Of a stretch of 19,267 bases of DNA, positions 2,616 to 15,287 are shown piece by piece; position 1 is the first letter of the stretch; each line of letters begins with the position of its first letter. A program made the position numbers and the translations under genes. The DNA is from a virus. Lineage: Duplodnaviria; Heunggongvirae; Uroviricota; Caudoviricetes. Under the pieces are notes generated by a model, which did not search any database, was not told the DNA's origin, and saw only the letters and a program-made list of their open reading frames with translations. The stretch lies in IMG/VR virus record IMGVR_UViG_2721755725_000016, positions 1 to 19,267 of that record. The stretch is one strand, 5' to 3'.

Positions 2616-3115
2616 GTCATTAAACCTGTATATAAAAACAGTTGTATGTTTATCTGATCAGAGACCATTACGCAACAAATTGTACAAAACAAGTAGTACC
2701 GTCGCTATTGAACCGGTCAGCTTAGTTACTTGATTGCTGAATGACAAGGCAATCTACAACTTTGTTTTGGAATCCTATATTTATCAAATAACTAACATTC
2801 GACAGTACTATTGGCATTCTCTTGATCAGACAGGCAGAATCTCATGTGGACTGAATAAAATGCCTTAGCTGAGTACGAAAAGAACTACTATCTGTTTACA
2901 TGATTTTTTGTCCGTAAGATGCATTGCGTCCGCTGTAAATAGCAGACGCATTCTGCAGAGAACAAATGAATAAGAAAGATTGGCACGCTGCTTGTGGAAT
3001 TCAGCTTTGGCTTCGTCGCAACATGTCGGTTGTTTGTCGTGCTCGTAAGATATCTACGGTCTGAACCGCCCCGGAAATCCTGGAGACTAAACTCCCTGAG
3101 AAAGAGGTAAACAGG

Positions 3116-3441
3116 ATGACTAAAAATACTCGTTTTTCCCCGAAGTCCGTCAGCGGGCGATTCGTATGGTTCTGGAAAGTCAGGATGAATATGACTCACA
3201 GTGGGCGGCAATTTGTTCCATTGCCCCAAAGATTGGCTGTACGCCGGAGACTCTGCGTGTCTGGGTTCGCCAGCATGAGCGGGATACCGGGGGCGGTGAT
3301 GGTGGGCTCACCAGCGCTGAACGTCAGCGTCTGAAAGAGCTGGAACGTGAAAATCGTGAACTGCGCCGCAGTAACGATATCCTTCGCCAGGCTTCCGCTT
3401 ATTTTGCGAAGGCGGAGTTCGACCGCCTCTGGAAAAAATGA
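3116..3441 (+). pseudogene. IS orfA, frameshifted (C5 tract reduced to C4)
   Basis: Copies 2 and 3 read ttttCCCCCgaag; copy 1 reads ttttCCCCgaag at about 3140-3144. The reading frame breaks after MTKNTRFSP and resumes as the 3166..3441 ORF. Confidence 0.8.
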
Positions 3442-4328
3442 TGCCACTGCTGGATAAGCTGCGTGAGCAGTACGGGGTCGGACCGGTATGCAGCGAACTG
3501 CATATTGCCCCGTCAACGTATTACCATTGTCAGCAACAGCGACATCATCCGGATAAACGCAGTGCCCGTGCGCAGCACGACGACTGGCTGAAGAGAGAGA
3601 TACAGCGCGTATACGATGAAAATCATCAGGTGTACGGTGTGCGTAAAGTCTGGCGTCAGTTGTTACGGGAAGGAATCAGGGTGGCCAGATGTACAGTGGC
3701 ACGTCTCATGGCGGTTATGGGACTTGCCGGTGTTCTCCGGGGTAAAAAGGTCCGTACGACCATCAGCCGGAAAGCCGTTGCCGCAGGCGACCGCGTAAAC
3801 CGTCAGTTCGTGGCAGAACGACCTGACCAGCTGTGGGTGGCTGATTTTACTTACGTCAGCACATGGCAGGGCTTCGTCTATGTGGCGTTTATCATTGATG
3901 TGTTTGCCGGATACATCGTGGGGTGGCGGGTCTCATCGTCTATGGAAACGACATTCGTGCTGGATGCGCTGGAGCAGGCGTTGTGGGCCCGTCGTCCGTC
4001 TGGCACCATCCATCACAGCGATAAAGGCTCTCAGTATGTGTCACTGGCCTATACGGAGCGACTAAAAGAAGCCGGATTACTGGCATCAACAGGGAGTACA
4101 GGCGACTCGTATGACAACGCGATGGCTGAGAGCATCAATGGTCTTTACAAAGCGGAGGTAATACACCGTAAGAGCTGGAAAAACCGTGCAGAAGTGGAAC
4201 TGGCCACACTAACGTGGGTGGACTGGTATAACAATCGACGATTGCTGGGAAGGCTGGGCCATACTCCTCCGGCAGAAGCAGAAAAAGCTTATTATGCTTC
4301 CATCGGAAACGATGATCTGGCAGCCTGA
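3438..4328 (+). CDS. IS3-family transposase OrfB (296 aa)
   Basis: Identical 296-aa product in all three copies. Integrase-core motifs including [10 protein letters not shown]. Confidence 0.9.
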
Positions 4329-4370
4329 GTTCACAGATAAAACACTCTCCAGGAAACCCGGGGCGGTTCA

Positions 4371-4634
4371 GACTGAAGATAATGTGATTGCTCCCGCCTG
4401 CTCAACACTCTGTGATCGATACGAATCAGTTCGTACTTATCTACTAGGAAGTTGACTGTATCGGCTAAGGGGAATCCCGTTTTCAATATGTACCTTCATA
4501 ACAGTGTCGTCAATGCGCTGCGTATCGTTAAGAGTCAGGCTGTAGTGTTTGTCCTGCAGGTATGTAACTAGGGGCTGTCAGACGGTTACAGAGGACTTCG
4601 CCACACGTTTTCGGAATATAGGTAAAATTCTCAT
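4371..4634 (-). pseudogene. CbtA/YeeV/YpjF-family toxin remnant, multiply frameshifted and 3'-truncated by IS copy 1
   Basis: Manual minus-strand translation gives MRILP..., LQDKHYSLTLNDTQRIDDTVMKVHIENGIPL and ADTVNFLVDKYELIRIDHR in three different frames, matching my recollection of the CbtA-family order. The reading frame runs straight into the IS end at 4370. Confidence 0.7.
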
Positions 4635-4781
4635 CGTCGGTTATTCTGCGAATAAAAGAAATTAATTGCGGACGGGTTTTTCGCGGTACGTCACTGTCGT
4701 ATGGCAGCCAGCGTATCTTGGTTTATGCCCTGCTCCGTATTGTTATGTCGGTCGGTATGGCATAATGCAGTCCTAGCTTTT

Positions 4782-5130
4782 TCATCGCTGGCAAATGTAC
4801 CAGTGCGAACCGAAGGGGGATTCACCGATCATCCTTTTCGCATACAGCGTGACGGTCTGCTGATGACGGGGATTCAGTTCACCGCTGGTGAACATGAGTT
4901 CCAGTTGTTTCATCAGCAGTGGAAAGGCTTGGTCCAGATGGTATGCATCCGCATCGCTGAACCGGCCTCTGATACCGGCGCGGTCTGCAAGGTAATGCAA
5001 CTGATTGCCCTCCTGCACCAGACGGGCGCCAAAACGGGGTGTCACTGTCACGAACGGTGCAGGGCAGCCCCCACCAGGGGCGGTCGTGATTGTCGTCGGG
5101 ATAATTTGTTTCATGGAGCGTGTCTGACAC
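4782..5130 (-). pseudogene. CbeA/YeeU/YfjZ-family antitoxin with internal frameshift
   Basis: N-terminus MSDTLHETNYPDDNHDRPWWGLPCTV is in one frame (start 5130); the remainder ...TVTPRFGARLVQEGNQLHYLADRAGIRG... is in the +1 frame down to the stop at 4782. The break is near 5045-5055 and looks like a roughly 10-bp imperfect duplication (gtgacagtgaca). Confidence 0.6.
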
Positions 5131-5209
5131 GATAAAATCCTCACAGAAAATCGGTTAAGAACGGTCAGGTAATGTCGATAATTCTGCTCATCAGAATGCC
5201 CTTACTGAC

Positions 5210-5431
5210 TCAGTTCAGAGTGACGCTCATCAGCCGGACATACGGGCCAAAACTGTCCTTACGGCGTTCTGCAAACACGGCCAGCACACCGGGAATATTC
5301 TGCACTTCACGACCGGTATACGCCTTAGCACTGCCGTGCCAGCGGTATTTGCCGGTACAGAACGGAAAAAGACGGGATGCAGGATGCTGTTGGTGAATAC
5401 GCATGGCTTCACCACGGGTGATGATTTTCAT
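5210..5431 (-). CDS. DUF987 family protein (YeeT/YkfH/YpjJ-like, 73 aa)
   Basis: MKIITRGEAMRIHQQHP...FPFCTGKYRWHG...VRLMSVTLN closely matches the recalled YeeT-family sequence. Sits in the conserved position between the RadC-like gene and the antitoxin. Confidence 0.8.
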   Translation of the reverse strand: MKIITRGEAMRIHQQHPASRLFPFCTGKYRWHGSAKAYTGREVQNIPGVLAVFAERRKDSFGPYVRLMSVTLN

Positions 5432-5499
5432 GGTGTGATACCTCTGAAGACAGAAGATAAAAGTGAAAACAGGTGTGATGTGGTGGTGACGGTGACGGG

Positions 5500-13425: not shown

Positions 13426-13447
13426 AAAAAAAGACGCTCGGCGCGTC
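13426..13447 (-). terminator. intrinsic-terminator-like hairpin inside the leader
   Basis: Minus-strand RNA GACGC-GCCGA-GCGUC followed by UUUUUUU (plus-strand A7 at 13426-13432). Confidence 0.45.
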
Positions 13448-13471
13448 ATGTGTCGCCTCGTACATTTCCGG

Positions 13472-13481
13472 GCTGCGAAAC
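13472..13481 (-). repeat. 10-mer GCTGCGAAAC (plus strand), copy 1, within hairpin CCGGG/CCCGG
   Basis: Hairpin 13468-13485. A partial complement (plus-strand gttcgcag) lies at 13298-13305. Confidence 0.5.
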
Positions 13482-13485
13482 CCGG

Positions 13486-13885
13486 CACCCGTTTTATGAG
13501 GTGCCTTATAACCATAAACCGTGTTGCCGCATAACGGCAAGCTCTTTTTTATGGACTCCGAAAACTCACTATTGGAAGCACCAGATGCACAATACATCGC
13601 GCTCATTTCGTTAACGTCGCGCGTGTGGACGAAGGTTTTTGTGGAGTCACTACGCGAGCAGAGAAAGCCATCTACGACCAGAAATTCTCTGGCGCAGCCG
13701 CCGACCTTCTCAACGCTAACACCATCGACCGTAATTTCTGACATAGTTAAGGCATCCGCTCCCACCACCAGAAAATGATAAACTTTGCTTGTATCTGCTG
13801 TATTAATGCCAGACTTTGCTGTCATATTGCTGGATTTTGGCGACATACCAGCCAGTGAAAATATCTTCTTCTGGACGGTTAGCAT
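13486..13885 (-). CDS. possible first ORF of the operon ([17 protein letters not shown]...), 3' end undefined
   Basis: GGAGG lies 7 nt upstream of the ATG at 13883-13885 and the N-terminal ~120 aa look protein-like. The frame stays open to 12818 through the structured leader, so the true end is uncertain; could be a pseudogene. Confidence 0.3.
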
Positions 13886-14019
13886 TTGTTAACCTCCGCG
13901 AACTCCTTCATGAAGCGCGCCAGCGGTTGTACGCATGGCGATTGATACCCGTCGCGATAAAACGTCACTCGGTTGTGTGAACCGCCCCGGGTTTCCTGGA
14001 GAGTGTTTTATCTGTGAAC

Positions 14020-14910
14020 TCAGGCTGCCAGATCATCGTTTCCGATGGAAGCATAATAAGCTTTTTCTGCTTCTGCCGGAGGAGTATGGCCCAGCCTTCC
14101 CAGCAATCGTCGATTGTTATACCAGTCCACCCACGTTAGTGTGGCCAGTTCCACTTCTGCACGGTTTTTCCAGCTCTTACGGTGTATTACCTCCGCTTTG
14201 TAAAGACCATTGATGCTCTCAGCCATCGCGTTGTCATACGAGTCGCCTGTACTCCCTGTTGATGCCAGTAATCCGGCTTCTTTTAGTCGCTCCGTATAGG
14301 CCAGTGACACATACTGAGAGCCTTTATCGCTGTGATGGATGGTGCCAGACGGACGACGGGCCCACAACGCCTGCTCCAGCGCATCCAGCACGAATGTCGT
14401 TTCCATAGACGATGAGACCCGCCACCCCACGATGTATCCGGCAAACACATCAATGATAAACGCCACATAGACGAAGCCCTGCCATGTGCTGACGTAAGTA
14501 AAATCAGCCACCCACAGCTGGTCAGGTCGTTCTGCCACGAACTGACGGTTTACGCGGTCGCCTGCGGCAACGGCTTTCCGGCTGATGGTCGTACGGACCT
14601 TTTTACCCCGGAGAACACCGGCAAGTCCCATAACCGCCATGAGACGTGCCACTGTACATCTGGCCACCCTGATTCCTTCCCGTAACAACTGACGCCAGAC
14701 TTTACGCACACCGTACACCTGATGATTTTCATCGTATACGCGCTGTATCTCTCTCTTCAGCCAGTCGTCGTGCTGCGCACGGGCACTGCGTTTATCCGGA
14801 TGATGTCGCTGTTGCTGACAATGGTAATACGTTGACGGGGCAATATGCAGTTCGCTGCATACCGGTCCGACCCCGTACTGCTCACGCAGCTTATCCAGCA
14901 GTGGCATCAT
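14020..14910 (-). CDS. IS3-family transposase OrfB
   Basis: Identical to the other copies. Confidence 0.9.
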
Positions 14911-15233
14911 TTTTTCCAGAGGCGGTCGAACTCCGCCTTCGCAAAATAAGCGGAAGCCTGGCGAAGGATATCGTTACTGCGGCGCAGTTCACGATTTTCA
15001 CGTTCCAGCTCTTTCAGACGCTGACGTTCAGCGCTGGTGAGCCCACCATCACCGCCCCCGGTATCCCGCTCATGCTGGCGAACCCAGACACGCAGAGTCT
15101 CCGGCGTACAGCCAATCTTTGGGGCAATGGAACAAATTGCCGCCCACTGTGAGTCATATTCATCCTGACTTTCCAGAACCATACGAATCGCCCGCTGACG
15201 GACTTCGGGGGAAAAACGAGTATTTTTAGTCAT
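14907..15233 (-). CDS. IS3-family OrfA (108 aa), intact
   Basis: Identical to copy 2 OrfA. Confidence 0.9.
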
Positions 15234-15287
15234 CCTGTTTACCTCTTTCTCAGGGAGTTTAGTCTCCAGGATTTCCGGGGCGGTTCA

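Follow-up and report, generated by a model that had tools for sequence, protein, structure and literature searches.

A 19,267-nt stretch of DNA filed as viral (IMG/VR record IMGVR_UViG_2721755725_000016; hereafter, the window) carries three copies of the insertion sequence (IS) IS629/IS1203, none of which is flanked by a perfect target duplication. Taken as a whole, the arrangement is probably best explained by a simple insertion of copy 1, an insertion of copy 3 followed by a deletion at its edge, a deletion joint occupied by copy 2, and a 4-bp footprint, GTGA, at copy 2 that would descend from the former flank of copy 3. The sequence identifies the window as the thrW-adjacent island of enterohaemorrhagic Escherichia coli (EHEC) of the O111 type, in which a P4-like satellite prophage abuts a CP4-6-like remnant; its whole length is 99.9-100% identical to O111:H8 and O111-type chromosomes beside proBA-thrW. 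Junctions were counted in 5,426 complete E. coli genomes, and structures were compared across 17 O111-type loci (the window and 16 relatives, cited below by L numbers or strain names). The comparison with IS-free relatives that the initial annotation had proposed as a check was thereby carried out, and the ancestral junctions were obtained from sister O111 genomes and from loci without the IS.

Repeat finding placed copy 1 at 3062-4370 (+, 1309 bp), copy 2 at 8940-10249 (-, 1310 bp; orfA at 9869-10195, orfB at 8982-9872) and copy 3 at 13978-15287 (-, 1310 bp), the boundaries reported by the initial annotation, and sequence comparison bore out its statement that the copies are identical except for a 1-bp deletion in copy 1. 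The reading frames of copies 2 and 3 are undisturbed, and these two intact copies share one sequence, which is also that of both copies in the O111:H8 strain TW05614. Every copy has 25-bp imperfect terminal inverted repeats with 22 of 25 positions matching (TGAACCGCCCCGG...CCGGGGCGGTTCA, termini TG...CA), the left and right repeats being referred to as IRL and IRR. Each encodes an orfA with the HTH_Tnp_1 domain and an orfB with the rve domain, HTH_21 also being found with Pfam; the two frames lie in 0/-1 register with a programmed frameshift signal, and the Rfam ALIL frameshift pseudoknot scores 121.5 bits in all three copies. All features tested assign the element to IS629/IS1203, an IS3-family element that transposes by copy-out-paste-in, the name being taken from identical copies in RefSeq O111 genomes annotated as "IS3-like element IS1203 family transposase". 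IS1203 is described in PMC3271280 as an IS629 isoform originally discovered in O111:H-. The window copies resemble the IS629/IS1203 of EHEC O157, O111 and O26 in their 1310-bp length, inverted repeats starting TGAACC, orfA/orfB organisation, ALIL pseudoknot, rve DDE domain and 3-bp duplications wherever the junctions are intact. The element itself shows no difference apart from the deletion in copy 1, where one C is missing from a C5 run (3138-3141) and orfA is frameshifted at about codon 9; TW05614 carries copy 1 at the same site in its full 1310 bp. This missing C may be a sequencing error, since two further private differences separate the window from all O111 relatives and both are likewise losses of one G from a run, at 4814 (G6 to G5) and 6519 (G5 to G4), and the three homopolymer losses together suggest errors in the source assembly.

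The flanks of copy 1 are contiguous in relatives. In five loci (L005, L011, L012, L013, and L015) no IS occupies this position and the sequence is TACGGTCTGAAG; the window reads TACGGTC|IS|GACTGAAG, so that 3 bp have been added and the right triplet carries A in place of T. The left duplication is GTC (3059-3061, +) and the right one GAC (4371-4373), differing by one base. GAC also stands on the right of copy 1 in eight other genomes and GTC in none, and the mismatch is therefore either old or arose at insertion. We read copy 1 as a simple insertion with a 3-bp duplication carrying one mismatch. Its target is the cbtA toxin pseudogene (3001-4634, -), which is split into halves at 3001-3061 and 4371-4634; because both halves are present, the earlier description of a truncated toxin gene was inexact. 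The gene was already dead in IS-free relatives through a frameshift and an internal stop, and a Pfam CbtA_toxin match lies at 4331-4486. An apparent inverted repeat formed by the two flanks (9/11) was rejected, the palindromic stretch being native to the cbtA target and present in the empty site too. The right-hand GAC is also identical to the three primase bases (ccTGAC|; window 10254-10256) that abut the IRL of an IS at the site of copy 2 in strain UTME-6, a match that may be accidental (odds of roughly 1 in 24-48) or may represent a second donor-flank tag.

Copy 3 lies in a DUF4222 gene, whose halves are at approximately 13879-13977 and 15288-15364. The empty site is GGTTGTGAGACACG in L002, L009, and L010, and the IS-free alleles of strains 6409, UTME-6, and 7-55 62A read GGTTGTGAGACACGCTTTCGAC. 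In TW05614 and 14614 the copy is flanked as GTG|IS|GTG-AGACACG-CTTTCGAC, with a perfect 3-bp duplication (GTG|IS|GTG under the locus numbers L001 and L006). The window reads GTG|IS|CTTTCGAC: the surviving GTG of the original duplication is on the IRR side (13975-13977, +), CTTTCGAC (15288-15295, +) abuts the IRL tip directly, and the 10 bp GTGAGACACG, comprising one copy of the duplication and 7 bp more, are missing from exactly the IRL tip onwards. These 10 bp are kept beside the IRL in 20 of the complete genomes, and the deleted joint is found in three others. The alleles identify copy 3 as a simple insertion with a perfect 3-bp duplication that subsequently underwent an IS-anchored micro-deletion of 10 bp. 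No usable microhomology was found at the IS tip for either this deletion or the GTGA insertion at copy 2, the most being 1 nt or less (G) at GTGA|GTCAGG. L003 and L010 share an identical ISVsa5 (IS10-like) insertion, at the same site and in the same orientation (equivalent to window 16772-16780); despite this, L003 has the 10-bp-deleted joint and L010 an intact DUF4222 site, which suggests that either the deletion or the ISVsa5 insertion is recurrent.

Copy 2 joins two different elements. On the IRR side the joint TTATTCTGCT/IRR (8930-8939, +) ends a stretch of island sequence whose native continuation in O157:H7 strain 4276 is CATGAACCACAAG (CTGCT-CATGAACC), leading into WYL, GTPase and other island genes; L004, L005, L008, L013, and L019 share this joint. 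On the IRL side is the N-terminal fragment of a P4-like primase (10254-10858, -), approximately 200 amino acids long and containing a zinc-ribbon domain. The full-length primase of strain 6409 is 2757 bp with TOPRIM and DUF927 domains, and the native sequence past the copy 2 joint, CCTGAC-AGGTTCA (CCTGAC-AGGTTCAGC), runs for 2.1 kb more. Because its flanks derive from two different elements, copy 2 stands on a deletion joint at which there was never a duplication; we place this joint between the truncated primase of the P4-like satellite and the CP4-6-like island. At each native breakpoint, a TGAACC/GGTTCA hexamer with the same sequence as the 6-bp terminus of IS629 stands 1-2 bp away, at CTGCT|CA-TGAACC on the island (L011, ~5396-5410) and TGAACC-T|GTCAGG in the primase (L002, ~5990-6003), and in four alleles (the window, UTME-6, L006, and L010) an IS end is joined either to the primase site itself or no more than 4 bp from it. 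Targeting of sequences resembling the inverted repeats is possibly the cause.

Between the IRL tip of copy 2 and the primase fragment stand 4 foreign bp, GTGA (10250-10253, +). They are the first 4 bp that ancestrally flanked the IRL of copy 3 (GTGAGACACG; cgtgtcTCAC|IS, or TCAC in IS orientation). This joint, CCTGAC-TCAC|IS, occurs in none of the complete genomes; an IS at this primase position is found elsewhere only in UTME-6, which reads CCTGAC|IS without the 4 bp. Since copy 2 carries the four flanking bases of the copy 3 junction, we infer that the IRL junction of copy 2 descends from the ancestral IRL junction of copy 3.

The flank readings of the initial annotation contained a one-base slip. 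In IS orientation the flanking triplets are GTC/GAC for copy 1, CAC/AGC for copy 2 and AAG/CAC for copy 3; the initial annotation had the first two pairs right and gave the right flank of copy 3 as ACA. Its statement that no pairing of the triplets yields a duplication depended on that misreading and falls with it, the left flank of copy 2 and the right flank of copy 3 both being CAC. One 3-bp match among nine pairings has a probability of ~13% by chance, and the match becomes meaningful because relatives show CAC to be the original duplication of copy 3. The proposal that the copies reflect recombination or adjacent deletion rather than simple insertion stands for copies 2 and 3 and fails for copy 1. 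A 12-bp flank apparently shared at "100%" by copies 1 and 2 was discarded as a rounding effect, direct reading showing that the flanks differ. Duplications of 3 bp are seen in intact form elsewhere, as CAC/CAC at copy 3 in L001 and L006 and as CGC/CGC around another IS copy in L005, L013, and L015, in addition to the GTC/GAC of copy 1. Target duplications of IS629 are reported as 3-4 bp, and matching flanks were found at only 21 of 47 O157 sites (PMC3271280).

Copies 2 and 3 are direct repeats bracketing a 3,728-bp segment of the P4-like satellite (10250-13977, -) that contains ash, small open reading frames (ORFs) and the C4/isrK RNA region. The initial annotation suggested that this segment could be deleted or mobilised. 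Deletion is borne out by several O111 genomes without the segment, in which one IS, or a scar from which the IS is gone, occupies the corresponding joints. Mobilisation found no counterpart, relatives showing loss only and no second location for the segment among the 5,426 genomes. The two identical direct IS copies around 3.7 kb do resemble a composite transposon or translocatable unit, but no duplication surrounds the unit and its inner joint is unique among these genomes; with outer flanks of AAG and AGC and no second site, movement as a composite transposon was rejected.

The 17 O111-type loci have 17 different structures, and there are thus at least 17 structural alleles. Recombination between direct copies is represented by a single IS flanked by cgtgtctcac| and |agcagaataa in L004 and L005, and recombination between inverted copies by inversions with swapped flanks in L008 and 11128. 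Deletions anchored at an IS tip extend over 4 bp in L003, over 793 bp in L004, to within 4 bp of the primase joint in L006, and as far as codA or an autotransporter gene near hemB in L016 and UTME-6. In these last two loci, L016 (strain 7-32 9A) and L009 (UTME-6), IRR is joined to codA or to an autotransporter pseudogene beside hemB, and the whole island and its backbone neighbours are gone. IS-less scars lie at microhomologies of 2-3 bp: CTG (CTG/CAG) in L001, CT in L007, and CCG in L014. L009 and L010 have an intact DUF4222 gene and appear to have lost copy 3 precisely. Recombination between copies 2 and 3 of the window should yield CTGCT|IS|CTTTCGAC, a form that none of the examined loci shows exactly; L007 (CTGCT|TTCGAC, from which the IS has gone at a CT repeat) and L003 (shorter by 4 bp) are each one step from it. 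Unique DNA is free of single-nucleotide polymorphisms (SNPs) among the O111-type loci, with only homopolymer indels differing, and the structural changes are therefore recent and frequent. Ordering the strains by SNPs in the four unique segments of the window gave no signal, the O111 loci being identical save for homopolymer indels. Three relatives have IS ends of the unexpected type: in L018 (O111:H2 08-3342, ~9025) IRR is joined to CTTTCGAC at the same base as IRL in the window, in L013 (08-4455, 16943-18252) the IS has IRR-type bases at both ends, and in L019 (11128, 12716-14025) IRL lies beside a cbtA half. These ends suggest exchanges within the 13-bp termini that the inverted repeats share.

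A probable agent of such changes is the IS-excision enhancer, IEE. It is described as present in O111:H8, and deletions dependent on IEE and transposase, from a few nucleotides to more than 40 kb, are reported to arise beside the IS, according to the account in PMC9943667. The IS-tip-anchored deletions, namely the 10-bp loss at copy 3 and those of 4 bp, 793 bp and more in relatives, and the microhomology scars probably match the reported products of the IS629 transposase acting with IEE. As IEE-promoted IS629 excision is summarised (Kusumoto et al. 2011, via PMC9943667 and bioRxiv 10.1101/2023.06.07.543989), the likeness covers deletions that start from the exact IS tip and remove anything between a few bp and tens of kb, scars without an IS that show 2-3 bp of microhomology, and precise IS loss that restores the gene, as at DUF4222 in L009 and L010; the difference is that added donor-flank bases such as the 4-bp footprint are not described in those summarising reviews, and that iee is absent from the window. 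The locus also resembles the IS-printing and small structural polymorphisms of O157 (Ooka et al. 2009, as reported in PMC3271280) in that close strains differ mainly by whether IS629 is present or absent and by IS-linked deletions. It differs from them in serogroup, here O111, and in locus, here thrW, a description of which was not found in the parts of the literature searched.

Simple insertion, tip-anchored deletion, inter-copy recombination and microhomology-scar excision account for every joint in the window except GTGA. Either of two routes may have produced it, and we favour them about equally. In route (a), an IS circle copied out of copy 3 would have seeded copy 2, and the junction spacer, the 4 nt outside IRL (a 5' flap), would have been ligated in and not trimmed, leaving TCAC beside IRL. 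The copy-out intermediate of IS3-family elements joins one IS end to a position a few nucleotides outside the other, and the bridged junction carries a short piece of flank (bioRxiv 10.1101/2023.06.07.543989). In route (b), a single transposase-initiated event would have cut at the IRL tip of copy 2 and 4 nt outside the IRL of copy 3. The excised [TCAC-IS-segment] would have closed as a circle, possibly through a 1-nt overlap (G), the chromosome would have healed as IS-tip|CTTTCGAC with the loss of 6 bp, and RecA recombination through the IS would then have returned the circle to the chromosome. Route (b) would cover both anomalies, because the 4 bp moved and the 6 bp lost add up to the missing 10 bp. 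The broader form of route (a), that the 4 bp are a circle-junction spacer from copy 3 and that insertions keep a donor-flank "return address", we regard as rather unlikely.

Several observations weigh against parts of this explanation. The postulated ancestor, with copies 2 and 3, without GTGA and with the 10 bp intact, is absent among the 5,426 genomes. Identity of 4 bp with the neighbouring copy has a chance probability of ~1/256, and a higher one if any of the ~25-30 genomic IS copies could be the donor. Retention of a spacer by IS629 was found undocumented in the literature consulted, and route (b) needs three steps. In UTME-6, which lacks copy 3, an IS abuts the same primase base with no 4 bp in between, a state that route (a) would fit only with extra losses or an insertion hot spot and route (b) more easily. 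L003 and L010 share ISVsa5 and differ in the 10-bp deletion; the deletion may thus be recurrent and unrelated to the footprint, a reading that would tip the balance towards route (a) or coincidence. Three homopolymer indels are private to the window, so its assembly is not error-free. Finally, the window does not contain the iee gene, which is located elsewhere in EHEC genomes.

Three other explanations were weighed. It is unlikely, to our judgement, that GTGA and the 10-bp deletion are unrelated, GTGA being chance filler or coming from another IS629 donor and the 10-bp loss being a recurrent tip-anchored deletion: the presence of the same deleted joint in strains with conflicting markers (ISVsa5 in L003 and L010) suggests recurrence, one-base fillers occur at other scars in L010 and 11128, and with ~25-30 IS copies per genome the existence of some TCAC-flanked copy is ~10% likely, but the 4 bp match the nearest copy, 3.7 kb away, and GTGA sits exactly between an IS tip and a former IS-tip flank, both of them positions of transposase action. 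We find it very improbable that the joint is an artefact of assembly or polishing, in which reads from the IRL junction of copy 3 were misplaced at copy 2 to give a chimeric GTGA. The three single-base homopolymer losses that set the window apart from all other O111 genomes and the uniqueness of the copy 2 IRL joint would be consistent with such an error; mis-polishing would, however, yield substitutions and not a clean 4-bp insertion, and the partner joint with the 10-bp deletion occurs independently in three other assemblies.

The remaining explanation takes up the reading of the initial annotation in full, that no copy is a simple insertion and that all flanks were scrambled by homologous recombination between IS copies or by adjacent deletions. 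Inverted copies do recombine at this locus, as the swapped flanks of L008 and 11128 indicate, and copy 2 is indeed on a deletion joint. This reading is nevertheless quite unlikely, and the empty-site alleles refute it for copies 1 and 3: the flanks of copy 1 are contiguous in its empty site, with 3 extra bp in the window, those of copy 3 are also contiguous and form a perfect duplication in relatives, and neither the loss of 10 bp nor the gain of 4 bp outside the IS can result from recombination within it. Homologous recombination is compatible in the window with the CAC shared by copies 2 and 3 alone, and this CAC also needs a non-homologous joint.

The three copies lie among the following genes and RNAs. 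From the right end leftwards, the P4-like satellite comprises an integrase gene (18053-19267), the int-alpA RNA (17925-17992, -), a DUF6387 gene, a helix-turn-helix gene, antA and the DUF4222 gene; beyond DUF4222, it continues leftwards with ash, the C4/isrK RNA region, small ORFs and the truncated primase. The C4 antisense RNA (13277-13364, -), the isrK Hfq-binding RNA (13427-13504, -) and the int-alpA RNA all score above their Rfam gathering scores; they form the immunity and regulatory RNA set of a P4-like satellite prophage, part of which lies within the IS-bracketed 3.7-kb segment. Left of copy 2, the CP4-6-like remnant contains two hypothetical genes and DUF932, antirestriction, JAB/RadC and DUF987 genes, together with yeeU and cbtA pseudogenes. 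Further leftwards, beyond the remnant, are genes for a cytosine methyltransferase and an HNH endonuclease.

The finding is genuine but unremarkable: IS629 copies, unmatched flanks, anchored deletions and inter-copy recombination are all established in EHEC. Only the 4-bp donor-flank footprint falls outside the descriptions consulted; it is mildly unusual, small and drawn from one assembly, and the locus as a whole has little weight for new biology. Its value lies in offering a compact, SNP-free natural series: all classes of IS629-driven change are documented in its at least 17 alleles, which are of use in strain typing and in testing models of how IEE acts. The footprint is a small clue to the processing of the circle junction or of excised DNA, and if donor-flank tags were true and general, donor-to-recipient genealogies of IS copies would be readable from genomes.

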